A program made the position numbers and the translations under genes. Below are positions 873 to 20,130 of a stretch of 20,130 bases of DNA, piece by piece. Source of the stretch: an uncultured virus (IMG/VR IMGVR_UViG_3300049846_001141) (taxonomy: Duplodnaviria; Heunggongvirae; Uroviricota; Caudoviricetes); IMG/VR virus record IMGVR_UViG_3300049846_001141; one strand, given 5' to 3'. Below the pieces are notes generated by a model. That model was not told the origin of the DNA and made no database searches. It saw only the letters and a program-made list of their open reading frames with translations. The first letter of the stretch is position 1; each line of letters starts with the position of its first letter.

Positions 873-902
873 TTCAAGCTCCAGTGATTGGGTTTGCGGG
901 GG

Positions 903-939
903 TTCAAGTCACAGACTTGAAGTGGTGTCCCACGGGGAC
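903..939 (-). promoter_or_regulatory. Tandem hairpins in the scaffold-capsid intergenic leader
   Basis: Minus strand GTCCC-CGT-GGGAC (927-939) and TTCAAGTC-TGT-GACTTGAA (903-921); no U-tract, so not a terminator. Confidence 0.5.
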
Positions 940-1659
940 TTACCGACCGGCTTCTCTCTTCAGCACAGCTGCGAGATCAGGGTCGGAGGCTTCCAAGGCC
1001 ATTTGCCTCGTTAAGTTAATACTACCTTCCTTCCATGGGTTAGCCATTCCGGGGGCAACATTAGATGCTGGTGTTGGTTTGGCGCCCATACCAGCGGCAG
1101 AACTCGGTTTGAAATGATGTTCAAAACCAGAGCCTGGGTTCTTTAAGTTGCTCAGATATGTACCAATGTTCTGCTCTACACCGCCGTTCAGAATCACCAC
1201 GTTTCCGTTGGCGTCCCTGCGGAGATTGCTTTGCAGAAGTTGGAGCATTTGCTCTGAGTTGATAGCTCCAGCCTGGTTGATGGCGGCAAGAGCGCTCGTG
1301 CGGATAGTGGCTTGCTCGTTGGAGGCCCGGAGGTCTTCCAGTTGGCGTTCCAGGTCCGCGATGCGGAGTTCTTTTTCTTGGGCGGTTTTGTTGGCTTCCT
1401 CCCAGAGGTCTTTCCATTGGCCTTGGTCTTCCAGCGTTTTCTTGCGCTGGTCGTCCTGCTTTTTGTAGACCTCGTCGAGTTTGTTTTTTATGCCTTGGAA
1501 TTTCTCCTCGGCTTCTGTTGCTTGAGTTTTCAGCGCTGCAATCTGACTTTCGTATTCGCTACGGAGAGCGCCGAGGTCAGCTTGAGGAGCGGTGTCGACT
1601 CCAGCCACGGGCTGGTCAGGAATCACCACGGGTGTCTCCTGGATGACTTGCTCTTCCAT
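940..1659 (-). CDS. Capsid scaffolding protein
   Basis: Acidic coiled-coil protein (LEDQGQWKDLWEE..., C-terminal G-rich linker and NPW motif) immediately upstream of the capsid gene. ATG at 1659 preferred over the track's TTG at 1665. Confidence 0.8.
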   Translation of the reverse strand: MEEQVIQETPVVIPDQPVAGVDTAPQADLGALRSEYESQIAALKTQATEAEEKFQGIKNKLDEVYKKQDDQRKKTLEDQGQWKDLWEEANKTAQEKELRIADLERQLEDLRASNEQATIRTSALAAINQAGAINSEQMLQLLQSNLRRDANGNVVILNGGVEQNIGTYLSNLKNPGSGFEHHFKPSSAAGMGAKPTPASNVAPGMANPWKEGSINLTRQMALEASDPDLAAVLKREAGR

Positions 1660-1661
1660 AC

Positions 1662-1856
1662 TCAAAATTCGTATTCAGCGGTTTGGGAAATTGTTTCTTC
1701 GGTAACGTTGCGGCGCTTGGCACGCACAGGTTTTTGTTCTGCAGGCTCGGGTGCAGGCGCAGGTGCAGGTGCAGGTGCAGGTGCAGCTTCCCGGAGTTCG
1801 ACCAATTCCCAGCGGAATGTGCCGTCCGGTTGTTGCACGTAATCCAGGCTTTTCAC
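1662..1856 (-). CDS. Small hypothetical protein with Ala-Pro linker
   Basis: 64 aa, GTG start, fills the portal-scaffold gap; TAGACT -10-like hexamer upstream near 1885. Confidence 0.65.
   Translation of the reverse strand: MKSLDYVQQPDGTFRWELVELREAAPAPAPAPAPAPEPAEQKPVRAKRRNVTEETISQTAEYEF
1750..1785. repeat. Hexanucleotide tandem repeat (GGYGCA)x6 encoding (AP)n
   Basis: ggtgca ggcgca ggtgca ggtgca ggtgca ggtgca read directly. Confidence 0.9.
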
Positions 1857-1902
1857 CAGTGGATAACGGTAACGACGTTTCTAGTCTAGAACAAAAGAGG
1901 GT

Positions 1903-3417
1903 TTAGCTCTCTTCGAGGTCTTCACGCTCTTCTTCTGTTGCCTCTTCTTCGGCAGATTCCTGTGGTTCCAGCTGTTCGTCGTCGGTGTGGGGCAACATGC
2001 CAGTGCTAAGGATTTCGCCTTGGCGCAGAATGTCGCGGAATTCTTCGCGGTCGATGACCTGCTGTGCGAACAGGGAAGTCAGCGCCGTAATGTCTTGGCC
2101 GATCAGGCGGTCAATGTCGAAGTCGCGGCTGATGTAGACCTTCGGGGGCTCCAGTTGGAGGTAGGTGGCGGCGTAGTTGAAGGCTTGCTGCAAGGTCTGC
2201 TGGAGGTCCATCGAGACCATCGACAGCATGGAGTTGGTGTCGACACGATCCAGGCGGCGGGCGTCGGCAGATTCGGCAACAAACTTTTGTTGGCTCAGTG
2301 TGCTGATGCCCAGTGTTGCCATTTGCTGCTGCAGTTCGCGGATTTCGTTGGTCTGCGCTTCGAACGCGCTAGACGCAGGCTCCACGTAATAGACCTTGTT
2401 ACCGGGTTGAGTGGCAATCGCGTAGTTGACGCCGACCGCCATGTCCTTGGTCTGGTCGTCCCAGCCCTCTAGGACGAGCATTGGTTGGGATGCGATGTGG
2501 AGGCTATGGATGAGGTCGGCTTGGCGTTGGAAGTGCGCGAGGTTTAGGTATGCAATGTCCAGTAGGGGTGGCTTGCTAACCAGGGTGTCGGTTTTGTTGG
2601 CGTACAGCGTTACGAGAGGGATTTCGCCCAGGCTGTAACTGCCGGTTTCGACTAGCTCGTAGTCGCTGGTGGTGGCAGAGGTGGTGTCGTAGCTGTTGGG
2701 GTAGGGCATTGAGCCCACCATTTCTTTGCGGGTCTCGCTCTGGCGGTAGATGCGGTAACGGCCGGGTTCGATGACGCGGACTTGGTCGTAAACCTTTTCG
2801 CCGAATTCGCCGTCGGGCAGCACGGCTTTTTCGCCGATGCGGACCTGGATCAATTTGCCGTAGTTGACTTCGCGGTCCAGGCGCCAGCCGTAGACGTTCG
2901 CAGGGTCGACTTCGATCCAGTAGGGGCGGCGGTTGAGGGCGCGTTCTTCAGCAAGACTTCGCGCTCCAGAGGGAGCGGGGAAGTCCACCAAGGTGTGGCA
3001 GTGGCCATAGGTCAGGGCGCAGATCAGCGTGCGACGTGCATATTCGTCCAAGTCAGAGCCGCAACCGTCGACGTCCTTGGCGAAAACTTCGCTCCAGTAC
3101 GGGTCGCCTTCAAGAGTGATTGGCTTGCGCAGGATTAGGCCGGAGGCGGCGCGGATTAAACGCTGCGTATAAGGAGAGAAAACAGCGCGGTTGACACGGC
3201 TCAAATAGGCCGAGTAGTCCTCGCGGGGTTCCAGTGGGAGGAAGGCTTCGCTGTTCTCGCGCAGGTATTCCGTGCCAAGCGTCACCGCTTTCATGATTTC
3301 CCAGCCCTTCATCTGGTCCAGCACGGCGCGGGTGCGGGTGAAGGGGTTGTCAGATCCGCCCATGTAGGTGGAGCTGACGAGGTGGGTGCGGATCTGGCCG
3401 GGGACTGAGTACGTCAT
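1903..3417 (-). CDS. Portal protein (DUF4055-like)
   Basis: 504 aa; motifs FLPLEPRE..YSAYLSR, DVDGCGSDLDEY, KPPLLDIAYLNLAHFQRQAD, ESADARRLD characteristic of DUF4055-type portals; position between terminase and scaffold. Confidence 0.9.
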   Translation of the reverse strand: MTYSVPGQIRTHLVSSTYMGGSDNPFTRTRAVLDQMKGWEIMKAVTLGTEYLRENSEAFLPLEPREDYSAYLSRVNRAVFSPYTQRLIRAASGLILRKPITLEGDPYWSEVFAKDVDGCGSDLDEYARRTLICALTYGHCHTLVDFPAPSGARSLAEERALNRRPYWIEVDPANVYGWRLDREVNYGKLIQVRIGEKAVLPDGEFGEKVYDQVRVIEPGRYRIYRQSETRKEMVGSMPYPNSYDTTSATTSDYELVETGSYSLGEIPLVTLYANKTDTLVSKPPLLDIAYLNLAHFQRQADLIHSLHIASQPMLVLEGWDDQTKDMAVGVNYAIATQPGNKVYYVEPASSAFEAQTNEIRELQQQMATLGISTLSQQKFVAESADARRLDRVDTNSMLSMVSMDLQQTLQQAFNYAATYLQLEPPKVYISRDFDIDRLIGQDITALTSLFAQQVIDREEFRDILRQGEILSTGMLPHTDDEQLEPQESAEEEATEEEREDLEES

Positions 3418-4600: not shown

Positions 4601-5851
4601 TTAATAGAGGCGATAGCTGGTTTGACCCAGCGTGCCGGCCTTGGCGAGGTTGAACTGCTGTAAACACAGGTAGCCAAAGGCGTCGAAGGCGTGGTCCACA
4701 CCAAGATTCTTGTTGGGGAGGCCCGTGCCAGGGGCGTAGGTGAGGGTGCGGAGGGACTTGATGAGTTCTTTGCAGCGGGGGTGGATGTAGGTGCGGCGGG
4801 TTCCAGTCGCATCGAGAAGGGCGGTGTTGACGGCGGTGATCTTGTCGCGGATTTTCCAGGGGGCTTTTGGGCTGGAGACGTTGAAGCCGCTGCGGCGGAG
4901 GATGTTGTGGTCGGTCAGACCCACGCCGCTGGTTTTGCGGGCGCCACCAGTGGGGTCCGGGCAGGCGATCACGCGGCGATCCACGCCGAAACGGCGGGTG
5001 ACTTCCTCGGCGAAGTCCCAGGTGGTGGCGCCGCCAGTGAGGATAATTTCGTCGAAAACATAGAGTGTTTCATTATCTTTTACAGCGCAAATTCCTGACA
5101 TCGGGCTAACATTAAAGTCGACGCCAAGCAGTAGCGGTAGGACAGAAATATCTGATGCTTCGGTTGAAATGTTTTCGTCGCCGAATGATATTGCAACGAG
5201 GCCGCTGAGGTTCTCGAAGCTGGCCTCGAATTCTTGGCGGAAGGTGCGGGCGTCGAGTTGGCCTCTTGCGGCTTCAATCTCCTCCGGGGGGACGTTGTCG
5301 CCTTCAATCGTCGTGAATTGCCAGCGGCTCCAGTTGTCGTCGCCGCTATCCGCGTATTGCCAGAGTTCGTAGAACCAGCTGGCGGTGCCATCCGGGGTGG
5401 AGATGAAGAGTGCCCAGCCTTGTTTGTCGGCGAGGGCGGGGCGGATAACCTCGAACCAGACTTCGCTGGACATAAATGCGGCTTCGTCGAGGACGACTCC
5501 AGCGAGGCTTCTGCCTCGCAGAGCCATTGCGTTTTCGGTGCCTTTCAGCTCGATTGTTGAGCCGTTTACTAGTTCGATCTTCAAATCCGTCTCATTTTTG
5601 GCCTTAATCCATGCTTTAGGGACTAACTTTTTCAATAATTTCCACACAATATCCTTACTCATGCGGTACGTTGGAGCACAATAAAAGAACGTTTCTCCGG
5701 GTCGTTCTATAGCTCCACGCAGAAGTTCCACGCAGGAGAGGTAGCTCTTACCGAAGCGGCGTCCGGCGACTAGGACGCGGAAGCGCTTGCGGCTTGAGAA
5801 AACTTGGCCCTGGGCGTAACGGAGGCTGACCGCTCCAGCAGATTCGGGCAT
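4601..5851 (-). CDS. terL: Terminase large subunit
   Basis: Walker A AGRRFGKS, Walker B VVLDEAAF, motif III ISTP, nuclease GVDFNV and C-terminal DHAFDAFGY. Confidence 0.95.
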
Positions 5852-5967
5852 TTTTATCTGGGGGGTACCTTCTAGTGTATTGCAGGAATCGCAACCCCTC
5901 CCCCCGGTGTGTAACAGAGGAAGGAATTGCGAATGTATCAGTAAGTTCCCTACGCCCAGCCCTGCGC

Positions 5968-5982
5968 GTTAAGTTTTGCAAC
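5968..5982. promoter_or_regulatory. GTWAAG-N4-GCRAC motif (HLR1/RpaB-like); further copies at 8216-8230 and 14599-14613
   Basis: GTTAAGTTTTGCAAC (+5968), GTTAAGATGTGCAAC (- strand, 8216-8230), GTAAAGATGTGCGAC (+14599); all intergenic. Confidence 0.4.
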
Positions 5983-5996
5983 CCGCCCCCCAGGAA

Positions 5997-6011
5997 TGAG
6001 AATGATTCTCA
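5997..6011. promoter_or_regulatory. 7-1-7 palindrome TGAGAAT-G-ATTCTCA (Fur-box-like), copy 1
   Basis: Perfect 7-1-7 inverted repeat, extendable to 11-1-11 with one mismatch (5993-6015); resembles the Fur 7-1-7 consensus TGATAATnATTATCA. Confidence 0.6.
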
Positions 6012-6044
6012 CTCCCGCAGGGGCAAGCGGTGCGGCGTCAGTCG

Positions 6045-6188: not shown

Positions 6189-6214
6189 AGGGAAGCGTGG
6201 TGAGCTTGCCTCCC

Positions 6215-6776: not shown

Positions 6777-6797
6777 GTTGATCGGTAAGGGCGCCAG

Positions 6798-7445
6798 TCA
6801 GCAAGGCCGGAAGACTGCCCATTGGCTCCCGTTGATCCGTTGCAACCAGTAGGCGTCACCAATCTCTAGTTCGCGCCAGGCAGCCTGCCAGTCAATGCAA
6901 CCTAGCGGCCATACTTGGGTGCCATCCGTCATCCCCAATTCTTCCGCTAACTGCTGAGCGTATTCTGCGCCAGCTTGTTCTGAGCTATAGCCTTCTGCCT
7001 CGCCTTGGTAGCAGTCTTTGTAGGTATCGGGATCGACGCCAGAAGCGCAAAGCTCAGAGACAACCGGCACCAAAGCCGCAGGGTCAGAGTCTGCAGCAAA
7101 GCCGCAATGCTCCAGGCACTCTGCCCATTCTTCCTGCAACCAGAATCCGAAACAAGAGCCATCGCCTTCGGACGCGCCAAAGTAGAAACCAGTCGGCGCC
7201 AGATCATTCAGGCGGTCGAAAGCCCAGGCAGTAGCCTCATCCCAGGCGTCGCACGGTTCCGGGCCGATAAGGTCCGAAGCGTAAGCGGCGCACTGCTGCA
7301 GATCGGAACGGAACGGTTCCGGTATGTCTTGCCCCAAGCGGTCAAAAGCGCCAAGGTAGGCATCGGCCAGATGGTCGGTGCGCAACGTGTCAGTGCTGAC
7401 GATCCAGGGGAAGGACGCCAGCTGTTCGGTGGTGTAGCGAGTCAT
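6798..7445 (-). CDS. Acidic protein with ArdA-like antirestriction C-terminal domain
   Basis: C-terminus YQGE...AEYAQQLAEELG...CIDWQAAWRELEIGDAY...AVFR matches the ArdA domain-3 pattern; N-terminal part has a LAPTGFYFGASEGDGSCFGFW motif; very D/E-rich. Confidence 0.6.
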   Translation of the reverse strand: MTRYTTEQLASFPWIVSTDTLRTDHLADAYLGAFDRLGQDIPEPFRSDLQQCAAYASDLIGPEPCDAWDEATAWAFDRLNDLAPTGFYFGASEGDGSCFGFWLQEEWAECLEHCGFAADSDPAALVPVVSELCASGVDPDTYKDCYQGEAEGYSSEQAGAEYAQQLAEELGMTDGTQVWPLGCIDWQAAWRELEIGDAYWLQRINGSQWAVFRPC

Positions 7446-7477
7446 GGTGTGAGCCTATGGGTTGGGTCTCGTGAAAT

Positions 7478-7506
7478 ACAGTAAGCCCGGACGGGCCAGC
7501 CGTCAA
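7478..7506 (-). promoter_or_regulatory. Near-consensus sigma70 promoter TTGACG-N17-TACTGT
   Basis: cgtcaa at 7501-7506 and acagta at 7478-7483 on +, 17 nt apart, directly upstream of the ArdA-like gene. Confidence 0.75.
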
Positions 7507-7946
7507 GCGTTACAGGCTAGGTAGATTCGCCCGCCGTCTCCTACGTAGGCGCCGATCTCACCCTGCGCAATCGCTAACTGCTCCATCGTCTCGCAGCAGT
7601 CACGCTCCACGCCGGGCCGCCACCGATCCGTCATGCTGACGCCGTGGCCGTCTCGCGCCAGTACGTAGGCGTGTTCCACGCGGTCGACGCCTAGCAGATC
7701 TTCAACGGAAAGCTCGCCTAGGCCGTATTCCAGCAGGCAGCCATCGGCAAGGTCGCGCCAGGCATAGTACTGATCAGACAATGCCTGCATGTCTTCCCGC
7801 CATGCGGCGGACATGTCGTGATCACGCTCCAGCGGTTCGCCGTTGTCATCTGACGTGGCCCATAGGATCGTCTCCCATAGCGCGGCGTCAACCATGCTCG
7901 GGCGCCAGCCTGCGGATTCTGCGGGATGGATGGTGCGGTTTTTCAT
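7503..7946 (-). CDS. Conserved phage early hypothetical protein
   Basis: 147 aa acidic protein; LWATSDDNGEPL...HAYVLARDGHGVSMTDR...GEIGAYVGDGGRIY resembles a diverged member of the GHDFWLTRNGHGAGFWD-type phage family (recalled, not searched). Confidence 0.75.
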   Translation of the reverse strand: MKNRTIHPAESAGWRPSMVDAALWETILWATSDDNGEPLERDHDMSAAWREDMQALSDQYYAWRDLADGCLLEYGLGELSVEDLLGVDRVEHAYVLARDGHGVSMTDRWRPGVERDCCETMEQLAIAQGEIGAYVGDGGRIYLACNA

Positions 7947-7949
7947 CGC

Positions 7950-8153
7950 TCAGGCCTCGCAAGTTGGGTTGATCTGAAGCGCTGCCAGAATCGCGCCAGT
8001 GGTTTGGTACGGGAAGTGCTGGCAGGTCGCACCGGCAAAGCGCCAGCAGCGGAACGTGCCAGACCAGTAAAGGTCTGAGGGATCTACACCAGCGGCCACA
8101 AGCTGAGCGGCTGTTGCTGGTGGGTGTGCTTGATCTCTGTAGTGGGTTTGCAT
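7950..8153 (-). CDS. Hypothetical protein
   Basis: 67 aa, ATG start, first gene of the leftward early operon, 3 nt from the next gene. Confidence 0.6.
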   Translation of the reverse strand: MQTHYRDQAHPPATAAQLVAAGVDPSDLYWSGTFRCWRFAGATCQHFPYQTTGAILAALQINPTCEA

Positions 8154-8204
8154 GGTTGCCTAGGTGTGGCTGCCCCAGATCCTAGCCTCAGCTCCAGCCC
8201 CTCT

Positions 8205-8264
8205 CTGCTGTTACTGTTGCACATCTTAACGTGGCTGGCAGCTGGCGGTGCTGCTGTTACTGTT
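8205..8264. promoter_or_regulatory. Divergent promoter region with 14-bp direct repeat CTGCTGTTACTGTT
   Basis: Repeat at 8205-8218 and 8251-8264; + strand CTGGCA-N17-TACTGT with TGn extension (8235-8263); - strand CTGCCA-N17-AACAGT (8241-8213). Confidence 0.6.
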
Positions 8265-8304
8265 AGAGGGTATCCCTCAAGCCGTACCCCGGCAGGATCG
8301 CACC

Positions 8305-8490
8305 ATGGCCACAACAGGAAAGGTCGTAACCGTCACCCTCTCGGGTGAGCACTGGTTACGTGTAGAACGTGCACTTCACGGCGCAGCTGCTCAGCTCCAC
8401 CGCACCGGCAACACCGCAGAAGCCAAGCGGTGCCAGCACACCCGCGAACTGATCCAGCACGTGATCACCCGTTGGGAGGTTGCGGAGTGA
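8305..8490 (+). CDS. Hypothetical protein (61 aa)
   Basis: ATG at 8305 with AGGA upstream; GTGA overlap with the next gene. Confidence 0.65.
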   Translation: MATTGKVVTVTLSGEHWLRVERALHGAAAQLHRTGNTAEAKRCQHTRELIQHVITRWEVAE

Positions 8491-8897
8491 GCGGCGGCGA
8501 ATGGACGACAAAGGGGCGCCAGCGAGAAGCCCGAGAAGCGGAGCGCGAACAGTTACGCCTGGAGAAGCGCCACCTAAGAGACCTCCGTTGGGCCATTGAG
8601 CGCTCCAGCATCGAAGCTTCGGATTGGGCCGACCTTTTAACGCTCCAGCAGGCCCACGGTAAAGAAGGTCCGCTCCAGCTGTGGCGGGAGCTTGTGCCGT
8701 ACTGGCGGGATTGCCAGCGCGTTAATGGTGGCGCCGATATCCCGGCGGATAGTTTTCCACAACTTCCGGGACTTTTAACGCGCGGCGCTCCAGCCGCTAG
8801 CGCTCCAGCGGCACGGGTCAAGGCATCGCCGGGGGCAGCCCGTAAGGTTCGCTCCAATAAAGGCAAAGCCCAGCCCAGCCGGAAGCGCTCCAGCTGA
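8487..8897 (+). CDS. Hypothetical protein with basic low-complexity tail
   Basis: GTG at 8487 overlapping the upstream TGA; MSGGEWTTKGRQREAREAEREQLRLEKRHLRDLRWAIER...; followed by a GC hairpin. Confidence 0.7.
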   Translation: MSGGEWTTKGRQREAREAEREQLRLEKRHLRDLRWAIERSSIEASDWADLLTLQQAHGKEGPLQLWRELVPYWRDCQRVNGGADIPADSFPQLPGLLTRGAPAASAPAARVKASPGAARKVRSNKGKAQPSRKRSS

Positions 8898-8903
8898 CCT
8901 CAC

Positions 8904-8924
8904 CGGCTCCCACCACGGGAGCCG
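8904..8924 (+). terminator. GC-rich hairpin after the rightward early operon (possible terminator)
   Basis: CGGCTCCC-ACCAC-GGGAGCCG, 8-bp perfect stem, only a weak pyrimidine tail. Confidence 0.45.
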
Positions 8925-8942
8925 ATTCCCTCTGCCTTGGCT

Positions 8943-8957
8943 TGAGAATGATTCTCA
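8943..8957. promoter_or_regulatory. 7-1-7 palindrome TGAGAAT-G-ATTCTCA (Fur-box-like), copy 2
   Basis: Identical 15-mer to 5997-6011; identity extends to 19/20 (TGAGAATGATTCTCAyTCCC). Confidence 0.6.
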
Positions 8958-9087
8958 TTCCCAGTGAGACTCATGAGACGCACCACGAGACAGCCGTAGG
9001 CGGAAATACCGGCCACGCTCCAGCAGACCTCCCATGCTGGGAGGAAGTATTAGCAGAATCGCCAATAAATACCAGGTATTGGCATTA

Positions 9088-9514
9088 TGAATGGTCAAAA
9101 CAATACCTGAATGGCCTTGAATGGCGTTCCAGTCATGAATGGCTTTTCGTCGAGGCCGTTAGGCCGAGACATGAATGGCCGTTTGTAGGTTCTCGAAATA
9201 TGAATGGCAGCGTTCCATGAATGAATTTTCTGCCTGTTCCAGTTCTGCTGCATCCATGTAGTGGACGTTGGGGGTGCCGCATCGACGTGCCAGCACGATG
9301 ACGGCGCCGGATGCTTTTAGGCCGGTTAAATGTTTGAGTCCCAGTGAATACGCTCCACACTGGTCGATGTATGAATGGCCGCTGGGAAGCCTGTCGTCGC
9401 GGTCGGTTTTACGTCCCACGCTAGTCTTCCAGTCGACAACATGAATGCCTTGTTTTCCTTTTACGGTGAGTAAGGCATCTGCCGTTCCAGCAAAACCTGC
9501 TGGGTGGTGAATGG
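9088..9514 (+). repeat. Array of co-oriented TGAATGG heptamers
   Basis: Exact copies at 9088, 9108, 9118, 9136, 9172, 9201, 9372, 9508; one-mismatch copies at 9218 and 9442. Confidence 0.85.
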
Positions 9515-9995
9515 AAAATTCGGAGGCGAAAATCTCCGTGACGTTTTCGGCGATCCAGTCAGATAGTGAACGAGCGTAACCTTTTGCACTGAATCCTACG
9601 GGGGGAACATTGGGGCGTACCCTTTTGAGTGCCCATTGTGTGATGGGAGCAGGAATACGCGCCAGGCCTTGTTCGTCCCAGCGAATAGAGTTTCTTTTGT
9701 TTGCTGTAGAACGTGCTAATTGCATTGAAGTTTTTAATAAATACTCTGCTTGATTGTGTGTCATGTTGCCTCTATTTGCTGCAACATTGCGCTGACAGGT
9801 GGCTTCTACTTCCCCGAGGCGTGCAGCCCAGCGTTCCAGTCCGGTGGTGTCGCTTGTCTCTTTTAGTATTCTAGTTACACTGTGATACACGTTACCGTTA
9901 ATGTCCCGGTAGATCCTGCCGCCGGGGTCGGATTCGTCATCACGTTCCAGCTTCCAACGCCTTAATCCAGCAAGTGTGTCTTGTGTATTAGGCAT
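9159..9995 (-). CDS. PD-(D/E)XK exonuclease (RecB/lambda-exo-like superfamily)
   Basis: YHSVTRIL, RGNMTH, SE..I...GFAGTADALL, VVDWKTS and QCGAY motifs; ATG at 9995 downstream of a TAGAAT -10 at about 10020. Confidence 0.85.
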   Translation of the reverse strand: MPNTQDTLAGLRRWKLERDDESDPGGRIYRDINGNVYHSVTRILKETSDTTGLERWAARLGEVEATCQRNVAANRGNMTHNQAEYLLKTSMQLARSTANKRNSIRWDEQGLARIPAPITQWALKRVRPNVPPVGFSAKGYARSLSDWIAENVTEIFASEFSIHHPAGFAGTADALLTVKGKQGIHVVDWKTSVGRKTDRDDRLPSGHSYIDQCGAYSLGLKHLTGLKASGAVIVLARRCGTPNVHYMDAAELEQAENSFMERCHSYFENLQTAIHVSA

Positions 9996-10033
9996 TGAAG
10001 GTACTATTTCCCTTCTGGATTCTAGTACAGGTG

Positions 10034-10588
10034 TCAACACTTGAAAATTTTGCTGGTGGCCTTTGCGTGAAAACGCTTGATTGCACCAGGGGATGCCTGT
10101 GGTAAGCCTTTTTCAGGCGTGTGTTCCCCGTGCAGCAGGGCCGCTGCGGCTAAGTAAGCCTCCCGAGCCTCTTGCTCTGTTGCGTAGTGCCCCAGGTAGT
10201 ACTGCACGCCATCAATCCCGATTAAAGCCCTGTAGGTGCCGCTTGGGGTCCTCGTGTAGCCCTTTACGTTGCTGCGGTTGCAGTGATTGCCGGAACGGGT
10301 GGTCGAACGCAGGTTCCAGGGGCTGTTGTTGGCTCTGTTGCGGTCTATGTGGTCTATCTCCAGGGGCTCCGTACCTGTGACCCACTTCCAGACAAGACGA
10401 TGGGCTGAAAATTTGTCGTGGCGAATTTCGCCGACTATGTAACCCTTTGTGAATCGGCAACCAAACGGTTTACCTATGCGGTAGGGATTCTTGTGGGTGC
10501 GCCAGTAAAGCGTCCCAGTAAATGGATCTAGTGAAAACAGCTCCCACAGCTCTTCCGCAGCCGGTAGGGGCTTGTAAGCTTTCGCCAT
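10034..10588 (-). CDS. Free-standing HNH homing endonuclease with AP2-like C-terminal DNA-binding domain
   Basis: SAHRLVWKWVTG...IDHIDRNRANNSPWNLR (HNH_3 type) followed by YRALIGIDGVQYYLGHYATEQEAREAY..AA..LHGE (AP2-like). Confidence 0.9.
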   Translation of the reverse strand: MAKAYKPLPAAEELWELFSLDPFTGTLYWRTHKNPYRIGKPFGCRFTKGYIVGEIRHDKFSAHRLVWKWVTGTEPLEIDHIDRNRANNSPWNLRSTTRSGNHCNRSNVKGYTRTPSGTYRALIGIDGVQYYLGHYATEQEAREAYLAAAALLHGEHTPEKGLPQASPGAIKRFHAKATSKIFKC

Positions 10589-10654: not shown

Positions 10655-11236
10655 TCAGGCAGGCTTAAAGGGGTTTGTTCCCTCCAGGAGCCTCGAAATA
10701 TCGAAGCCGTCAGACTTCGCTTCCAGCCATGCTGCGTCAATAAATTCTTGAGATCCTTTCTTTCTAGGTACCGGACGAACTGAATACTCAGTCGTTAAAC
10801 CTGAGCCTTTTTTTGATACGGAAAAATCCCAATCAAGCAAGTTGCTATAGTCATCAAGCTGACTAATCGCATCAATTTCTTTCAAAATTGATTTTTGGGT
10901 AATCTGTAGTACTTGAACTTTTCCAGCGTCATATACGTACACGGGGATTGCTATAGCAAACTTCACATCTGCTGTTCCAGGGCCACCGCGTCCTTCGCGG
11001 GGCTCGAACTCGCCCATTTCGGCAACCACGTCCTCATAAGTGGGCTCGTATGAAAACCGGAAAGGTTTGTTGACCCCGTTTGCTTGCCCCCAGCACTCGT
11101 GAAATTCCAGAGGTTCGTCAGTGAGTAGGGCGAAGCGGACGGATCCACCATCGGGGAGTTTGCTGAGGCTCAGGTAGCCGCCGCCGCTGTTGCCGCCGTT
11201 GACGTTTGCAGATGCGGATTTTGAAAGGAAAGCCAT
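10655..11236 (-). CDS. Probable single-stranded DNA-binding protein (gp32-like)
   Basis: ATG at 11236 (MAFLSKSAS...); GGYLSLSKLPDGGSVRFALL and WDFSVSKKGSGLTTEYSVRPVP pattern, C-terminal NPF; lies between primase and exonuclease. Confidence 0.6.
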   Translation of the reverse strand: MAFLSKSASANVNGGNSGGGYLSLSKLPDGGSVRFALLTDEPLEFHECWGQANGVNKPFRFSYEPTYEDVVAEMGEFEPREGRGGPGTADVKFAIAIPVYVYDAGKVQVLQITQKSILKEIDAISQLDDYSNLLDWDFSVSKKGSGLTTEYSVRPVPRKKGSQEFIDAAWLEAKSDGFDISRLLEGTNPFKPA

Positions 11237-11377
11237 TTGTGTAGGTGTTTGGTGTGGTCGGCTGAGTGCCAACGAGTAACACACTAACACGCCTTGACAC
11301 CGATGGCTAGGCTGAAAAAACGCCCCACAGCGGAAAAGCTGCAGGGCGTGTGGAACATTCTCATGTGAGACTCTAAC

Positions 11378-13774
11378 ATGTCGCAAGGTAAGACGCAGGA
11401 TCTGCTGGCTTTTGTGCGCCAGTTGCCTGTGGGGATGGCGTATGCACCGATCTACGCCAAAGGCGAGAAACTGCCCTCAGGGTCGGTAAGCAAGGGCAAG
11501 ACGCCCACAAAGCGCAGTCATGACGAGGTGATGAGCCCGGCTGACGTCGCTCTGCAGATTGAGCGCCAGCCGAAGGTGTTCCAAGCGGTGGGCGTCTTTA
11601 CGGGCGGTCGCAGCATGGGACTCGTGATTCTTGATGTGGATCGGAATCTCAGTCGTCTCAAAAAGAAATGGGGCGAGTCGCTGGAGGGTGCTCCAGTCGT
11701 TACCTCGACCAAGGCGAACGCGGCGAAGTACCTGTTCCGTGTCCCTGAAAATTTGTGGGGCTCGGTGCAGGGTTTTGGCCTGTCCGATACCGGGGCTGGG
11801 TACGAGGTGCTCTGGGGCCGTCAGGGCGTCATCTACGGGGCTTATCCGGGCTCCAGTGATGGGAAGGCACCAGAAGGTCAATACGGCTTTGAAGGGGACT
11901 TGGAGGCGATTCCAGAGGCTCCTGCGTGGCTGATCGCTGAGATGAAGGAGCGGGCTGGCAAAGGTGTTGAGGATGCCGGCTTCATCAGGAACCGCAAGGC
12001 GCTTGATTTCTCGGATCGAGATCCAGCTGAGGTGGCTGAGATCATTCAGTCGGCACTGAAGGTCATTCCGGGGCAGGGGGCTGGTAGCCGGGACCACTGG
12101 GTCAAGGTGGGGATGGCGATCCACTCGGAGTTGCCGACTGACCTAGGGCTAACGCTGTGGTCTGCGTGGTCTGCGGAAGATCCGGAGTTTTCACAGGAAT
12201 GGGAGGAGGGCAATCCCTGCGAAGCCGCTTGGAGGAGCTTCAGGAAGGGCCCTGTAAGCCTCGGGACGCTCTTCTGGATGGCGGACCAGCAGATGCCTGG
12301 GCGGCTGTGGCTTGCGGAGGATCTGCGGAAGGTTGTTGAGGAGGTTGAGGGCGATAACGTCACGCGGATTCGGCAAGTCGTCATTACCTATGCCGAGGTG
12401 ATCCGCCGGGCCAAGGAGATCCAGCAGATTCAAAACCCGGCGGAAGCGGCGCACGCCATGAATGTTTTGGCGCTGGAAGCTGGGTATCGGGATGCTGGGG
12501 CTCTGGAGCGGTTGCTGATCGCTCAGATGCAGTTCGAGCAGCAAGATGACGAGATGGCGATGGACAACCTGCTCAACAAAGATCTGAAGTTTGAGTACCT
12601 GATCCCAGATCTGCTGCCCTGCCCTGGGACCGTGATGATTCACGGCGCTGGTGGGGATGGCAAATCCATGTCCGCTTGGACGATTGCCAAGCACGTGGCC
12701 CGTGGGATTCCATTCTCCGTGCGCGGGGATCTTGTTCCAGTGGAAGCTGGTCCCGTTTTGATCCTCAACGGCGACCAGTCAGAGGTCCAGGTTCAGCAGC
12801 AGCTTCGGGATCTGGAGTTCCAGCCGTCGGATCCGGTGACCGTGGTAATGGGGTGGGACCTGAACTGGTATTACCGCTTCGTCAAGCTGATCGAGAAGCA
12901 CCAGCCGAAGCTCGTGATCATCGACTCGATCACGGGCTGCAGCAGGGGATCGGCGTTCGACGAAAACAAAAAGGAGTTTGCGAGCCCGATCTACTGGTTA
13001 GCCAACAACAACGGACGCATGTTCCCGGCTTGCACCATCCTGCTGATCCACCACGCCAACAAAACTGGCGGCTTCCGGGGTTCCACGGCCATTAGGGACG
13101 CTGTGGATGAGGTGTGGGGGCTGCGGCGGCCGGACAAAAAACAGGTTGAGCAGACCGGCTACAACGCTCGCCTCATCACCGTGGAGAAGTCCAGGGCTGG
13201 CCGAGATGGCTCCAAGCTGCTGATGAAGCTCGAAAACGACCTCACCTTCTCCCTCGCGGATTACGTGGAGGTCGATACCGACAGCGCCAGCCCGGCATCA
13301 ATCGTGGATCGGGTGCTCCAGCGCCTCAGGGCTGCTCACCCGCGTGCTCTGAGCCGCTCTGACCTCGCTGCGGATGCCCTGTGCGGTGGAAGTGTCGCCG
13401 CTATCGGCAAGGCGCTCCAGAGGCTTGCTTCGCGGGGATTGGTTGAGGTGGTCGGTCAGACCTCCACAGGTGCCAGACCTTCCAATCTGTACCAAGCAAT
13501 TCTCTCGCGTGATATGTGTGTGAAAGTGTGTCCTGAATTGGGAAAACCCAGTCAGGGACTGGAAAGTAAAAAAGGACAGCCCTTGGACGTGTCCTCTTTT
13601 GCTGGGGAGACTGGAGCAAAAAAGGACAGCCCTACCCTGTGTCCCGATTTGTTTCCCAGTCGTACCAAGGGGTTTGGTGAAAGAGGACAGCTTTTTGAAG
13701 GCTCCCCAAGGGATGAACGCTCTCCTGAGGAGTTGGCAAGGCTGATGCAGGAAGCCGCACGGATGTGGGACTGA
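11378..13774 (+). CDS. PrimPol-PriCT2-RecA-like (AAA_25/SF4) primase-helicase
   Basis: N-terminal Prim-Pol (GLVILDVD), PriCT-2 (RDHWVKVGMAIH...LWSAWS), Walker A GAGGDGKS, Walker B VIIDS, LIHHANK/RGSTAIRDAVD, C-terminal wHTH-like region. Confidence 0.9.
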   Translation: MSQGKTQDLLAFVRQLPVGMAYAPIYAKGEKLPSGSVSKGKTPTKRSHDEVMSPADVALQIERQPKVFQAVGVFTGGRSMGLVILDVDRNLSRLKKKWGESLEGAPVVTSTKANAAKYLFRVPENLWGSVQGFGLSDTGAGYEVLWGRQGVIYGAYPGSSDGKAPEGQYGFEGDLEAIPEAPAWLIAEMKERAGKGVEDAGFIRNRKALDFSDRDPAEVAEIIQSALKVIPGQGAGSRDHWVKVGMAIHSELPTDLGLTLWSAWSAEDPEFSQEWEEGNPCEAAWRSFRKGPVSLGTLFWMADQQMPGRLWLAEDLRKVVEEVEGDNVTRIRQVVITYAEVIRRAKEIQQIQNPAEAAHAMNVLALEAGYRDAGALERLLIAQMQFEQQDDEMAMDNLLNKDLKFEYLIPDLLPCPGTVMIHGAGGDGKSMSAWTIAKHVARGIPFSVRGDLVPVEAGPVLILNGDQSEVQVQQQLRDLEFQPSDPVTVVMGWDLNWYYRFVKLIEKHQPKLVIIDSITGCSRGSAFDENKKEFASPIYWLANNNGRMFPACTILLIHHANKTGGFRGSTAIRDAVDEVWGLRRPDKKQVEQTGYNARLITVEKSRAGRDGSKLLMKLENDLTFSLADYVEVDTDSASPASIVDRVLQRLRAAHPRALSRSDLAADALCGGSVAAIGKALQRLASRGLVEVVGQTSTGARPSNLYQAILSRDMCVKVCPELGKPSQGLESKKGQPLDVSSFAGETGAKKDSPTLCPDLFPSRTKGFGERGQLFEGSPRDERSPEELARLMQEAARMWD
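13529..13689. repeat. Dyad-symmetric TGTCC/GGACA array (candidate replication origin)
   Basis: TGTCC 13529, GGACA 13574, TGTCC 13590, GGACA 13624, TGTCC 13640, GGACA 13685; 16-bp direct repeat AAAAAAGGACAGCCCT at 13568 and 13618. Confidence 0.7.
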
Positions 13775-14348: not shown

Positions 14349-14350
14349 CT

Positions 14351-14420: not shown

Positions 14421-14429
14421 TTCAAATGG

Positions 14430-15903: not shown

Positions 15904-16254
15904 ATGACTGACAACAACCATCCGATTACTCCGCCGCCTGATCTGATTGAAGACTGGGTTGAGATAGCCAAGCCGCTGCCTCAACGACCTCCTAATCCAG
16001 GCGAGCTTGCAGCACTGGCCGCCCGCTGGGGCGCTGATCAGGAGTTGGAGGCGTGCATCTTACTGATGCTCGAAAAAGGCTGGATGAACCAGTCATTTGC
16101 CGACAACCTCCGCGACGCCCGCCGCCCCAAGCCGCTGAGCTTGAAGGAGCAGGCACTACAAGCGTTGGACCTTTTGAAAGTGGATGCCTCTACTCACGGT
16201 CTTGGCTTTGACTCATCTGCCATCCGCCGCGCTCTTGAATCCCTGCCCGAGTAG
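15904..16254 (+). CDS. Conserved phage hypothetical protein (ITPPP...AARWGADQELEAC...ARRPKP.SLKEQAL type)
   Basis: 116 aa; motif set recalled from cyanophage hypotheticals (not searched). Confidence 0.75.
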   Translation: MTDNNHPITPPPDLIEDWVEIAKPLPQRPPNPGELAALAARWGADQELEACILLMLEKGWMNQSFADNLRDARRPKPLSLKEQALQALDLLKVDASTHGLGFDSSAIRRALESLPE

Positions 16255-16268
16255 ACAACATCACTTCT

Positions 16269-16436
16269 ATGCGTAATTACTTTCTTGCCACACTGGCAAT
16301 CCTCATCCTTGTTGTCGGCTACGTATTTCTTTTGCAGTCTGCTAACGACCGTGTTGAAGCCAGATGCGCTGCTGCTGGTGGTCAGGTATTGACACAGCCC
16401 GGCGAAGTATCCAAATGCTTACGCCTTGCCCAGTAG
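16269..16436 (+). CDS. Small single-pass membrane protein with a Cys pair (55 aa)
   Basis: Not in the track: MRNYFLATLAILILVVGYVFLLQSANDRVEARCAAAGGQVLTQPGEVSKCLRLAQ. Confidence 0.7.
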   Translation: MRNYFLATLAILILVVGYVFLLQSANDRVEARCAAAGGQVLTQPGEVSKCLRLAQ

Positions 16437-16525
16437 TCCGATCACCTAGCTAACTCCTAGTTTCCGCCTAATTAGGAGTTGACACAGACCCGCTCTTCCC
16501 TACTACACTGCACACGTTCCATCCG

Positions 16526-16921
16526 ATGAACATGTACATCCTTTCTGAAGCCCAGTTCGACGAGATCGTCAAAGCTCTGGATGCTGCCCGCTTTGTTGTT
16601 GATACGTGCCAGCACGTTCAGATTGATCTGACTAATCCCAAGCAGACCATTCCGCTGCCCGCTGGCGAGAAGATTGTTCGCGCCCAAGCGAAGTCTCAAG
16701 GTAAGACTCGTAAGTCCAGCCGCAAAGGCAAGCGTGGGCACTCGGTGTTGACTGAGCCCAAAGTGCTGGAAATTAAGCGCCAGTTGGCTGCTGGTGGAAA
16801 ATCAGTGGCCAAGATCGCTAAGGAGTTTGGCGTTCATGCCACAACGGTGAATTGCATCAAATGGAATAAGACCTGGAAACATGTGGTGCTCCAGCAGGAA
16901 ACCGTTGCGGCTGCGGCGTGA
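16526..16921 (+). CDS. HTH DNA-binding protein
   Basis: C-terminal LTEPKVLEIKRQLAAGGKSVAKIAKEFGVHATTVNCIKWNKTWKHV; TTGACA (16479) and TACACT (16504) upstream. Confidence 0.75.
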   Translation: MNMYILSEAQFDEIVKALDAARFVVDTCQHVQIDLTNPKQTIPLPAGEKIVRAQAKSQGKTRKSSRKGKRGHSVLTEPKVLEIKRQLAAGGKSVAKIAKEFGVHATTVNCIKWNKTWKHVVLQQETVAAAA

Positions 16922-17427: not shown

Positions 17428-17666
17428 ACGACAACGTGAGTCGCCCCAGTCATTACACGGCTGGGAAGGTTGAAGTCATTGATGTGATCGAAGATTGGGT
17501 ACGGCACGCGCCTGACCCGATTGTTGGTGGCTTGCATTGGCAGGTCATTAAGTACATCAGTCGGGCGTGGCTGAAGAAAGATCCGTATGAGGATTTTCGT
17601 AAGGCTCGCTGGTATCTGAACCGCCTCATCAATACATTGGCTACGGAGGCGTACCAAGACCGATGA
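17424..17666 (+). CDS. DUF3310 family protein (T7 gp1.7-like putative nucleotide kinase domain)
   Basis: DNVSRPSHYTAGKVEVIDVI...IKYISRAWLK...EDFRKARWYL; ATG at 17424. Confidence 0.85.
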   Translation: MNDNVSRPSHYTAGKVEVIDVIEDWVRHAPDPIVGGLHWQVIKYISRAWLKKDPYEDFRKARWYLNRLINTLATEAYQDR

Positions 17667-17827
17667 GGCATTGGTGGCGAGTTGTCGCCAAGGCCCTGGG
17701 AGAAAAGGCGCACCAGCACGACCGGGTTGCTGATCAGGTTGCACTGGTGCGTTTTTGTATCTTGGCGGCCTACATGACTACAAACATTTTCATTTGCGCA
17801 GGCGTTATCAGGCACTGGAATGGCTAA
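17663..17827 (+). CDS. Small conserved cyanophage-type membrane protein (54 aa)
   Basis: Not in the track: MRHWWRVVAKALGEKAHQHDRVADQVALVRFCILAAYMTTNIFICAGVIRHWNG; overlaps both neighbours. Confidence 0.8.
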   Translation: MRHWWRVVAKALGEKAHQHDRVADQVALVRFCILAAYMTTNIFICAGVIRHWNG

Positions 17828-18290
17828 CCATTGCACTCACACTTTCAGACGAATCACCAACATTCATCAGTGGAAACATAAGCCGAACCTGTATACCTAC
17901 AGGCTGAAGTGCAAATGTTGTGGGCACCGGTGGAATGTTTACTTTGACCGGGTTGCCAAGAAAGAGGTGCAGGTGTCTCTGCGGGACATGCCCAACAACC
18001 GTCGCAGGATGACACCGAAAGAAGTGAAAATGATTTTGGAGGATTGGCGGTTTGATCACACCTTGGCTAACGCTTTAGGTATATCGCGTCAGTCAATTCA
18101 TTCAATCCGAACAGGACGGACGTACAAAGATGTCTGTCCTGAGATCCCGCGCCGTCGATTGAAGCAGCGCCAGCAGCAAGGAAACGGTTGCATCAAATGC
18201 AAGCACTGGCACAAAGACATGTGCGATTTTGATATTCCTGAAGCTGGTGAGGCCGGATTTTTTACCGAATGTATTCTTTTTTCTGAGTAA
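17820..18290 (+). CDS. Zn-ribbon/HTH protein with Cys-rich C-terminus
   Basis: CKCCGHRW, LANALGISRQSIHSIRTGRTYKDV HTH, CIKCKHW...C...C. Confidence 0.7.
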   Translation: MANHCTHTFRRITNIHQWKHKPNLYTYRLKCKCCGHRWNVYFDRVAKKEVQVSLRDMPNNRRRMTPKEVKMILEDWRFDHTLANALGISRQSIHSIRTGRTYKDVCPEIPRRRLKQRQQQGNGCIKCKHWHKDMCDFDIPEAGEAGFFTECILFSE

Positions 18291-18565
18291 TGGCAGTCAC
18301 TATTAACAGCAGGCCGTGCCAGAAGTGCGGCAAGCACACGACTAATCCGGTCATGTGTATGAGGTGTTATCGCTCCAGTCCTGCGGGCCTTGAGGAGATT
18401 CGAATGGACCGGTTGCGCCAGAGTTACAAACCTCAGGCGGATGGGGGGCCTTGTAAGCACTGCGTTCATTGGGGGAAACGGTGTTTGCTTGGACTTCCCG
18501 AAGGTGGGACACTCGCGGCGGCGGTGTTGTGTTCGGCGAGGGAGGTTGAAAGTCTGCTAGAGTAG
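18290..18565 (+). CDS. Cys-rich putative zinc-finger protein
   Basis: CQKCG...CMRCY and CKHCVHW..RC.LGLPE...C. Confidence 0.7.
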   Translation: MAVTINSRPCQKCGKHTTNPVMCMRCYRSSPAGLEEIRMDRLRQSYKPQADGGPCKHCVHWGKRCLLGLPEGGTLAAAVLCSAREVESLLE

Positions 18566-18590
18566 TAGGGTACAAGTTGCCCTACCAGGC

Positions 18591-20130
18591 TTGGACTTTT
18601 TTCTTGGCATCGAGCATCTGCATACGCTCGACGATGAACGGCTGATCGCGTTTGACTCGGAGACAACGCAGCTCCAGCCAAAGATGGGCGGGATGCGGTT
18701 AGTGCAGTTGGGTGCCCCAGGTAAACCGCCTGTGGTGCTCGACTGCTTTGATTTGGACGACAACGACTGGATCGTTGTTGAGGAGTTTTTCAGCGTGGAG
18801 CGCACATGGGTAGCGCACAATGCTGTTTTTGATCTTGGATGGCTTCAGGAACACGAAATTTATCCAGCGGGAAAGGTTTTGTGCACCATGCTGGCCAGTC
18901 GGATTCTTACTAACGGGATGCCAAATGTGAAGCATGGGCTACAGCATTTGGTGAAGCGTTATCTGCACGAGGATATTTCTAAAGAAGAGCAGAAGAGCGA
19001 TTGGTCGGGTGAGTTGACCGAGAGCCAGCTGGAATATGCGGCGAAGGATGTGCTGGTGCTTTTGGATTTGTTTGATCAGATTCAGCAGCGCATGGCGACG
19101 GCGGCGCTCCACCCGGCTTGGTACTTGGAGTGCAATGCTTTGCCGGCAATGGCACAGTTGTGGCGTACTGGTCTTCCTTTTAAAAAGCAGTTATTAGAGA
19201 AGTTAATAGAAGATTTGGATATTGAGCACTACGAAGTTGGTGAAAAGTTCATCGAAGATTTTGATACCGCTTTACCTGAAGGCCACAAACTTTGCCGGGG
19301 TATTGATGGAAAGTTGCTGTACCAGACAAAGCCTGGACCCAAAGGTAAAAAAGTAGATCCGAATGTTTTCAACCTCAATAGTCCTGCGCAGTTACTGAAA
19401 AAGTTCACTGCGTTGTTGGGTGAGGCGCCGATTGATGCGAAAAATGGCAAGCCAAGTGCCAGTCGGATGGCGCTCCAGGAATACGTTGGTGATCACAAAG
19501 TTGTTGCTGATTACTTGCGGTGGAAAAAGGTTGAAAAGAAGCGGCAAATGGCGGAAACATTGCTGAAGAACTTGGCAAAGGATGGATTTATTCGTGCCAG
19601 CTACATGCAGATGGGGGCTGATACTGGAAGGATGAGTTGCATGAGTCCCAACTTGCAACAGATTCCGAGGGATCAGCGGTTTAGGGCTTGTGTTCAGGTG
19701 CCAGAGGGGTGGAAGTTTGTGGTGGCGGACTATGGGCAGATGGAGTTGAGGTTGGCGGCGGCAGAAGCTAAGGATTCTCTTATGACTCAGGTGTTCCAGC
19801 AGGGGAAAGACCTCCATACGATTACGGCGACGCAGATTTATGGGGTCGCGGAGGATGAAGTTACAAAGGAACAGCGCCAGGTTAGTAAGAGCGCAAACTT
19901 CGGATTGCTCTATGGAAGTGGTGCAAAAGGGCTCAGGAATTATGCGGCAGCAACTGGAATCCAGATGGATCTTGCTGAGGCGGCGGAAGTGCGGGAAAAG
20001 TTCCACGCTGCATATAAAGGCATCTCCGCATGGCAGCGCAAAAATGCTCGCGATGCTGATGCGGCTAAGGACAATCCATCTATCCGCATACGCATCTCGG
20101 GCTTGCGGCGGTTTTTACCGGGCGAGAACA
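18591..20130 (+). CDS. polA: Family A DNA polymerase with 3'-5' exonuclease (3' end runs off the window)
   Basis: Not in the track. TTG start MDFFLGIEHL...; ExoI AFDSET, ExoII AHNAVFDL, ExoIII YAAKDV, TGRMSCMSPNLQQIP, motif A ADYGQMELR, motif B RQVSKSANFGLLYG; extended -10 TGC-TAGAGT near 18555-18563. Confidence 0.95.
   Translation, partial: MDFFLGIEHLHTLDDERLIAFDSETTQLQPKMGGMRLVQLGAPGKPPVVLDCFDLDDNDWIVVEEFFSVERTWVAHNAVFDLGWLQEHEIYPAGKVLCTMLASRILTNGMPNVKHGLQHLVKRYLHEDISKEEQKSDWSGELTESQLEYAAKDVLVLLDLFDQIQQRMATAALHPAWYLECNALPAMAQLWRTGLPFKKQLLEKLIEDLDIEHYEVGEKFIEDFDTALPEGHKLCRGIDGKLLYQTKPGPKGKKVDPNVFNLNSPAQLLKKFTALLGEAPIDAKNGKPSASRMALQEYVGDHKVVADYLRWKKVEKKRQMAETLLKNLAKDGFIRASYMQMGADTGRMSCMSPNLQQIPRDQRFRACVQVPEGWKFVVADYGQMELRLAAAEAKDSLMTQVFQQGKDLHTITATQIYGVAEDEVTKEQRQVSKSANFGLLYGSGAKGLRNYAAATGIQMDLAEAAEVREKFHAAYKGISAWQRKNARDADAAKDNPSIRIRISGLRRFLPGEN

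Follow-up and report, generated by a model that had tools for sequence, protein, structure and literature searches.

A selected, strand-polar DNA motif in a clade of uncultured tailed phages, possibly a Chi-type signal for host RecBCD

Why should a short asymmetric DNA word be repeated along one strand of a phage genome and stay rare on the other, whichever strand the genes lie on, and what might read it? The question is raised by a 20,130-nucleotide stretch of an uncultured virus of the Caudoviricetes (IMG/VR record IMGVR_UViG_3300049846_001141), called the window here; it covers bases 19708–39837 of a 39,837-bp record that IMG/VR classes as having direct terminal repeats and as 100% complete. 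Because the 108-bp terminal repeat lies inside the DNA polymerase gene, it represents the overlap of a circular or permuted assembly, and family searches arrange its genes in two divergent arms of the same genome (Table 1). A first-pass annotation of the window had reported the heptamer GCTCCAG about 29 times on the plus strand and twice on the minus strand, irrespective of gene orientation, and had suggested a host Chi-type or translocase-orienting signal. We find that this heptamer belongs to a degenerate motif that is a selected, one-strand, clade-wide DNA signal, and we consider below what might read it; tentatively, we favour a Chi-type sequence for host RecBCD.

The window holds 32 copies of GCTCCAG, 30 on the plus strand and two on the minus strand (12503 and 13611); all 29 plus-strand positions reported earlier were confirmed, and a copy at 3091 had been missed. 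Dinucleotide shuffles of the window gave 4.11 ± 2.04 copies, both strands summed, and 0 of 100 reached 32. Over the whole 39.8-kb circular genome the count is 41:6 (plus:minus, here and below), the polarity thus holding in the rest of the genome as well. An unbiased ranking of strand-skewed words placed GCTCCAG (41:6), GTTCCAG (30:3), GCGCCAG (29:7) and GTGCCAG (22:3) on top, giving a degenerate motif (C)G-Y-K-C-C-A-G with a genome-wide total of 122:19 for GYKCCAG. The motif is sharply bounded: single-base variants outside these four are all at background level and without skew. A C is preferred on each side, the octamer CGYKCCAG occurring 57:4 genome-wide, and the base 5' of GYKCCAG is C in 57 of 122 copies (about 25% expected) and a pyrimidine in 80. 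Read as its complement the motif is (G)CTGG(A/C)(A/G)C(G), with CTGGMRC as the heptamer, and the complement octamers in this genome (G000) count GCTGGAGC 19:1, GCTGGAAC 10:1, GCTGGCGC 12:3 and GCTGGCAC 8:1.

Can coding or base composition account for this? Synonymous shuffles of the whole genome gave 40.5 ± 5.2 copies of GYKCCAG on the plus strand (maximum 58) and 18.7 ± 3.6 on the minus strand, and codon permutation gave 27.8 and 15.8, compared with 122 and 19 observed, so that the excess survives codon shuffling. Since the minus-strand count lies at expectation, the pattern is a one-strand enrichment, about threefold beyond codon use, and not avoidance. Markov models of orders 1–3 expect 16–42 copies where 122 are observed; a maximal-order model of the phage itself (39.5 expected for GCTCCAG) tells nothing, as the motif enriches its own sub-words. 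GC skew is 0.078 with the motif copies and 0.081 after their removal. Part of the polarity in the minus arm is ordinary, since CTGGMRC is favoured on the sense strand generally (about 1.5:1 in sampled picocyanobacterial genes and 21:3 in cyanophage S-CBS1); the homology-supported genes of that arm carry 39 sense copies of CTGGMRC against 14.5 ± 3.0 in shuffles (maximum 23). The plus arm is decisive, because the polarity there opposes the coding preference, and still its homology-supported genes carry 21 sense copies of GYKCCAG against 4.2 ± 1.9 (maximum 10 in 500 shuffles). Copies occupy all three reading frames in both arms. The polarity is thus a property of the DNA that depends on neither gene strand nor reading frame, much as the first-pass annotation had proposed.

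The copies are spread around the circle at about 5 per 2 kb everywhere, with random-like spacing (coefficient of variation 1.02, largest gap 2096 bp) and no flip of polarity at any point, and rise to 13 and 16 per 2 kb at 26–30 kb of the genome. This rise corresponds to a dense zone in the window (Table 1), in the left part of which GCGCCAG is the prevailing variant, and which includes the seven-copy cluster singled out in the first-pass annotation. That cluster is real: six of its seven copies fall inside a poorly conserved open reading frame (ORF) at 8487–8897, in all three frames, and the peptides quoted for it match. Beside it, nine one-way copies of TGAATG(G/A), mostly ATGAATGG, occupy the 3' end of the exonuclease gene and the DNA downstream of it; these repeats are candidate iterons of a replication origin or an operator.

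The signal is shared by relatives. The portal protein of the phage retrieved more than 433 relatives in the viral collection, and in the 80 loci kept for motif counts (742 kb) the motif occurs 1488 times in the orientation of the window and 198 times in the opposite one. Five relatives that are complete or largely so (G303–G307, CheckV completeness 79–100%) have the same two-arm layout, with 82–87% identity in the portal and 40–79% in the primase-helicase, and carry GYKCCAG at 107:28, 68:14, 59:20, 70:9 and 51:22. Reversal relative to the coding preference in the plus arm, counted in ORFs of at least 150 codons, is clear in G303 (39:13), G304 (20:6) and G306 (24:6), and unclear in G305 and G307 (9:7 each). 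All long loci of the closer relatives, and G303–G306 as well, show a density peak 4–7 kb upstream of the portal gene, between terminase and exonuclease, which is absent at that place in G307; in G000, G303, G304 and G306 the peak adjoins TGAATGGC repeats. The plus strand is G/T-rich in G000, G303 and G306; G304, G305 and G307 have a GC skew close to zero or of opposite sign. In five orthologous genes, 16 of 28 sites of G000 are kept at the aligned position in G303, 8 of 28 in G306 and 9 of 28 in G304, compared with 0.24, 0.14 and 0.11 of other 7-mers, respectively, so that motif sites are kept 2–3 times better. At the same time 8 of 24 sites in G303, 15 of 23 in G306 and 13 of 22 in G304 are new, the total staying at 22–28. 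Sites are thus both preserved and replaced while their number is held.

Table 1. Coordinates of the genome arms, genes and repeated elements discussed in the text (window coordinates unless marked as genome).
Feature	Coordinates	Strand	Remarks
Polar GYKCCAG field	878..19478	+	79 on +, 8 on -; extends through the other genome half
Dense zone	6791..9293	+	25 copies per 2.5 kb, 0 on -; between terminase-proximal ORFs and exonuclease gene
CGCTCCAGC cluster (complement GCTGGAGCG)	8601..9025	+	Seven copies of the extended form
Iteron-like array	9088..9225	+	Seven (C/T)(A/T)TGAATGG-type direct repeats beside the cluster; two more at 9372 and 9508
Minus arm	genome about 600-31093	-	Endolysin, integrase, tail proteins, major capsid protein, scaffold, portal, large terminase, then small ORFs without family match, PD-(D/E)XK exonuclease, HNH endonuclease, weak single-strand DNA-binding protein match
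Plus arm	genome 31085 through record end to about 574	+	Prim-Pol/PriCT_2/AAA_25 primase-helicase, dCTP deaminase, family A DNA polymerase
Portal protein	1903..3417	-	Query for finding relatives
Large terminase subunit	4601..5851	-	Family match
PD-(D/E)XK exonuclease	9159..10040	-	Family match
Putative single-strand DNA-binding protein	10655..11386	-	Weak family matches only; no solved relative found
Primase-helicase (Prim-Pol + PriCT_2 + AAA_25)	11378..13774	+	Opens the plus arm
Family A DNA polymerase with 3'-5' exonuclease domain	18591..20129	+	Crosses record end into the first 395 genome bases

What, then, might read such a word? The pattern is best explained as a signal that works in one orientation and is read on single-stranded DNA by an enzyme travelling one way along the phage chromosome. 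Packaging usually begins upstream of the terminase gene and proceeds in the direction of the head genes, and from the orientation of the large terminase gene packaging in this phage is likely to proceed towards lower coordinates. Provided that it follows this usual course, the density peak sits at the ‘right end’. The orientation of the motif relative to the terminase and head genes, which lie on the minus strand, matches the lambda convention. The complement of the motif shares GCTGG with the E. coli Chi sequence GCTGGTGG, and its CG variant is the Pseudomonas Chi sequence GCTGGCGC (both Chi sequences from PMC12315714). The peak directly upstream of the terminase region, in G000 and relatives, has its counterpart in phages LLS and MD8 (PMC12315714). 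We therefore propose, as the likeliest single reading though one we hold with some reserve, that the motif is a Chi-type sequence for host RecBCD, read as 5'-(G)CTGG(A/C)(A/G)C(G)-3' on the minus strand. In our analysis Chi appears to be the only known mechanism yielding such a pattern in phages; it is also the best-supported one, in agreement with the sequence of the motif, its orientation and where the peak lies.

The likeness to the Chi-rich phages LLS (lambdoid), MD8 and P1 (Zheng et al. 2025, PMC12315714) extends over several features. There, as here, one short asymmetric word surpasses all others of the phage in skew or in frequency, with a polarity of 7:1 or more and a GCTGG core in common; it is denser towards the end by the packaging genes, on the packaging/head sense strand, and RecBCD is present in the host class. 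In Pseudomonas phage MD8, for example, GCTGGCGC occurs 32:0 and is the top octamer in the phage and only the 43rd in the host (PMC12315714). The same source describes Chi-rich phages without recombination modules, and in the present phage, many of whose ORFs lack a family match, family searches recognised no annealing protein and no RecBCD inhibitor, the sole nuclease being MGME1-like rather than lambda-Exo-like and the single-strand DNA-binding protein match being weak. Unlike the words of LLS, MD8 and P1, however, the word here is degenerate, with four variants, is 3–6 times denser and covers the whole genome evenly; it is neither over-represented nor replichore-biased in four sampled candidate-host chromosomes; and the phage is not lambdoid and has its own replisome (comparison with PMC12315714).

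Let us assume, then, that RecBCD gains access through a double-strand end at lower coordinates, which might be provided by a first terminase cut upstream of the terminase gene or by the tip of a rolling-circle tail. The enzyme would then travel towards higher coordinates and meet each copy from its 3' side, and at the motif degradation would stop and RecA loading would start, so that concatemers would be kept and recombined instead of being destroyed. In such a scheme the zone at 6.8–9.3 kb, with its seven perfect copies, would be the first DNA crossed by the entering RecBCD, and ends arising anywhere in a permuted genome would be guarded by the evenly spread copies elsewhere, about 2.5 per kb. 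The identity of the reader as RecBCD, its end of entry and its direction of travel are what we infer from the motif and its placement.

Is RecBCD likely to be present in the host? The phage has lysin and tail genes in common with Synechococcus siphoviruses: its endolysin and that of Synechococcus phage S-CBS1 share 58% identity, and of 209 records matching the endolysin 180 are Synechococcus phages or cyanophages; a 760-residue tail protein matches S-CBS1, S-CBS3 and S-LBS1 only; the portal shares 32–37% identity with the portals of S-2L, S-H1 and KBS-S-2A; and four freshwater or freshwater-sediment metagenome runs contain at least 0.79 of window positions 5800–9300, one of them perhaps being the sample of origin. 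Taken together, these matches make a picocyanobacterial host likely. Portal matches in two metagenome-assembled genomes, one of Verrucomicrobiota and one cyanobacterial (L093, L094), were considered as prophages and rejected, as they are phage DNA over their full length (tblastx against G000), pointing to binning carry-over. Marine Synechococcus and Prochlorococcus carry recBCD, and the accessible part of the source names no picocyanobacterial Chi (PMC5101192). The RecC family PF04257 was found above its cut-off in 53 of 61 genomes of the Cyanobiaceae, the family holding the cyanobacterial metagenome-assembled genome.

Several observations weigh against a Chi-type signal, the foremost coming from host chromosomes. 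Known Chi sites are usually over-represented and leading-strand biased in their host. We sampled four complete Cyanobiaceae chromosomes (G+C about 40, 55, 61 and 64%), 20 pieces of 20 kb from each (400 kb, 15–20% of each chromosome), oriented by the sign of their GC skew; the first 20 kb of G012 (29:7, one giant gene) and two pieces whose skew sign was unlike that of their neighbours (L168, L192) were left out, and the true host of the phage may differ from these strains. CTGGMRC shows no leading-strand bias in the four sampled chromosomes (fractions 0.44, 0.44, 0.45 and 0.53), and the octamers behave alike. With three genomes pooled, the four variants rank 101, 478, 2460 and 5831 among 6503 skewed 7-mers, the top ones being G/T-rich, and a maximal-order Markov model finds no over-representation in the sampled hosts (z −0.9 to 1.3). 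The idea, raised with the first-pass annotation, that the word would be over-represented and leading-strand skewed in candidate picocyanobacterial hosts was thus not borne out in these samples. The motif is also dense, with 3.1 heptamers and 1.4 octamers per kb, well above the one per 1.86 kb of LLS (PMC12315714). The edges of the motif also drift among relatives, the 5' C being near-obligatory in G304–G306 and the 3' G relaxed in G307, which may reflect divergence of a phage-encoded reader just as well as divergence of the hosts. Finally, polarity independent of gene arm is absent from the cultured cyanophages S-CBS1, S-LBS1, KBS-S-2A and S-H1, which share genes or hosts of this kind. Because the true host may differ from the sampled strains, the host result weakens a Chi-type reading without refuting it. 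The earlier proposal of a host Chi is partly supported: the GCTGG core, the peak by the terminase genes and the presence of RecC speak for it, and the lack of host skew and over-representation in the samples speaks against it.

We also looked for the motif beyond the clade. A scan of viral contigs for two CGCTCCAGC copies no more than 45 bases apart led us to examine 80 loci among the matches listed, and of these the most polar at about 51–59% G+C (L225, L236, L258) are relatives of this phage. Six polar loci were examined closely; five have no protein similarity to the phage and one has only a 26% polymerase match. Four loci of about 70% G+C, where ORF calls are unreliable, look like sense-strand codon effects, and a few small, low-G+C polar loci have no explanation, for example L274 (13:2, mostly one tight repeat array) and L283 (7:0). 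Among the matches listed there was no clear case of an unrelated phage with the motif. Five cultured cyanophages were also searched word by word for polarity independent of gene arm; the search was underpowered and gave nothing clear. Cyanophage S-2L (L092), with GCTGGGGC at 19:3, was discarded as support, since eight copies lie in a low-complexity, G+C-rich coding repeat (15990–16619) adjoining its annealing-protein gene. In phage T7 (L155), GCTGGTG, which has seven of the eight bases of E. coli Chi, occurs 21:0 and CAGCAG 0:36; all T7 genes lie on one strand, so that coding is a confounder there. Literature searches on the octamers, on strand-biased phage motifs and on PrimPol priming sites found no report of the motif.

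The nearest competitor to a Chi-type signal, in our view only slightly less probable and likewise doubtful, is that GYKCCAG is the template recognition site of the Prim-Pol/PriCT_2/AAA_25 protein of the phage itself. The enzyme would track the plus strand as the lagging-strand template of unidirectional (rolling-circle type) replication, its PriCT helix-bundle domain would bind 5'-GYKCCAG-3' with the primer starting at the base just 5', and the cluster beside the iterons would serve as a loading or first-priming zone; since chance provides few copies of a 7–8-nt site, selection would add more, on that strand alone. Archaeo-eukaryotic-type (AEP) primases do read template motifs through a helix-bundle domain: ORF904 of pRN1 reads GTG, and the primase-polymerase of phage NrS-1 uses an 8-nt site, TTTGGTTA, as well as GTG, and starts at the first base upstream (PMC8718748). 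The phage encodes Prim-Pol, PriCT_2 and helicase, the helix-bundle-type PriCT_2 being fused to the helicase along with Prim-Pol, and so resembles these enzymes, whose known sites reach 8 nt and whose synthesis starts just 5' of the site, where the motif here prefers C; unlike the present motif, none of the sites known from the accessible part of that source is enriched on one strand genome-wide (PMC8718748). The frequent 5' C, near-obligatory in G304–G306, fits a start with a purine (G), a weak criterion. A minus strand at its shuffle expectation agrees with only one template strand needing sites, and the even density outside the peak, the restriction of the signal to one clade with its absence from the sampled hosts and the other cyanophages examined, the G/T-rich plus strand of G000, G303 and G306, like that of a strand spending time single-stranded, and the conserved iteron array adjoining the cluster are all in keeping with a primase site. 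On the other hand, the searched literature held no precedent for a genome-wide, one-strand enrichment of primase sites, and the T7 primase sites [GT][GT]GTC, taken as a single control, are not polar (187:215). The motif persists while the primase-helicase drops to 40–52% identity, its spacing is no more regular than random, and GC skew is near zero or reversed in three of the relatives. The scheme further depends on strictly unidirectional replication, itself an assumption, and a primase site alone does not explain the peak upstream of the terminase genes. We note that the phage primase-helicase has no detectable similarity to the PrimPol of S-2L and 29% identity over 126 residues to that of S-LBS1.

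Other readers of direction, namely a nicking HNH endonuclease, a polar barrier to a fork or motor, or a decoy for a DNA-tracking host defence, might leave a similar trace, and the specificity of the signal to the clade, the three HNH genes, one of them beside the exonuclease gene, and the many ORFs without a family match leave room for such a factor. We regard it as unlikely, however, as no gene is tied to the motif and no example of such sites being enriched turned up in the literature searched. One-strand single-strand interruptions occur in phage T5 and in some Pseudomonas phages, a handful per genome, and the about 120 nicks per genome required here would be far above that. A functionless by-product of codon use, amino-acid composition or strand-biased mutation would be in line with the sense-strand preference for CTGGMRC in host genes and in other cyanophages (up to the ratio in S-CBS1), and with the G/T-rich skewed words that the phage plus strand and host leading strands have in common; it fails on the reversal in the plus arm, the sharp boundaries of the motif and the retention of sites, and fits poorly with a GC skew undiminished by motif removal and with polarity in relatives of opposite GC skew, so that we give it very little weight. 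We give still less to evasion of a restriction enzyme that needs two inverted asymmetric sites (Type III or Type ISP). In being asymmetric, degenerate and 7 bp long, the motif resembles the recognition sites of such enzymes, and the EcoP15I sites of T7 are all one-way, which is explained as avoidance of inverted pairs; the 0:36 of CAGCAG in T7 goes the same way, and in both phages nearly all copies of an asymmetric word share one orientation. But evasion would deplete the minority orientation and not enrich the other, and here the minority orientation is not depleted, the majority stands at three times its synonymous-shuffle level, and the sites are retained by selection; T7, moreover, has its genes on one strand and shows avoidance, whereas the enrichment here is positive across both gene orientations. 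As for the translocase-orienting signal suggested in the first-pass annotation, KOPS are defined by a strong leading-strand skew in the host that flips at origin and terminus. The motif has in common with KOPS that it is short, polar and over-represented and would be read by a translocating enzyme, and differs from them in showing no skew in the sampled hosts and no flip around the phage circle; a KOPS-like signal would require host skew that the sampled chromosomes do not show, and we have set it aside.

Some further observations concern the host samples and the genes of the phage. The piece of G012 left out above (L120, G012:C1:1-20000) is a single open frame of more than 6,600 codons, with G+C 0.54 against about 0.61 and a strong GC skew; it is probably a gene for a cell-surface protein and distorts word counts. 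In the G012 sample with this piece included (L135–L154 plus L120, 420 kb), GTGAGGGT occurs 35 times on the leading and once on the lagging strand, and GCTGTTGC 73:17; by its skew, GTGAGGGT is a candidate translocase-orienting (KOPS-like) word of this Synechococcus-type genome. In the phage, the three domains of the primase-helicase all score above their cut-offs (Prim-Pol 26.5 bits, PriCT_2 59.7 bits, AAA_25 66.3 bits). MGME1 is a mitochondrial flap and single-strand exonuclease, and it is the nearest solved relative by sequence of the phage exonuclease (E 5e-06, residues 153–284), a likeness that hints at a role in flap or primer removal and not in recombination. A conserved 166-residue ORF by the large terminase gene, possibly a small terminase, changes place among the genomes: G000 and G303 have it upstream of the large terminase gene, G304 and G306 have it downstream, and in G307 it is found on the opposite strand. 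An abiF RNA motif match (RF03085, Rfam; 52.8 bits against a gathering score of 37) lies at 14310–14346 on the plus strand of the window; its 50-base stretch is 96% identical to one of Synechococcus phage S-SZBM1 annotated as tRNA-Ala, and ARAGORN found no tRNA in the window. Just downstream, at about 14393–14420 (plus strand), the sequence resembles the T-arm and acceptor 3' half of a tRNA (GGTTCGAGTCC...), and given the integrase gene it may be the core of an attachment site; the stretch holding both (14290–14440, 151 bases) had no match among 301 genomes of the candidate host family.

Irrespective of the identity of its reader, the signal is strong and conserved across an abundant environmental phage clade, with more than 433 related viral contigs. 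If the motif is the recognition site of the phage primase, it would be the first case in which the sequence requirement of a primase visibly shapes a whole genome, and the direction of replication, the origin and the specificity of the primase would become readable from sequence alone. If, as we tentatively favour, it is a Chi-type sequence, it would be the first candidate Chi for the RecBCD of picocyanobacteria, which are among the most abundant phototrophs, and it would extend the ‘Chi-rich phage’ strategy from phages of enteric bacteria and Pseudomonas to cyanophages with a replisome of their own.

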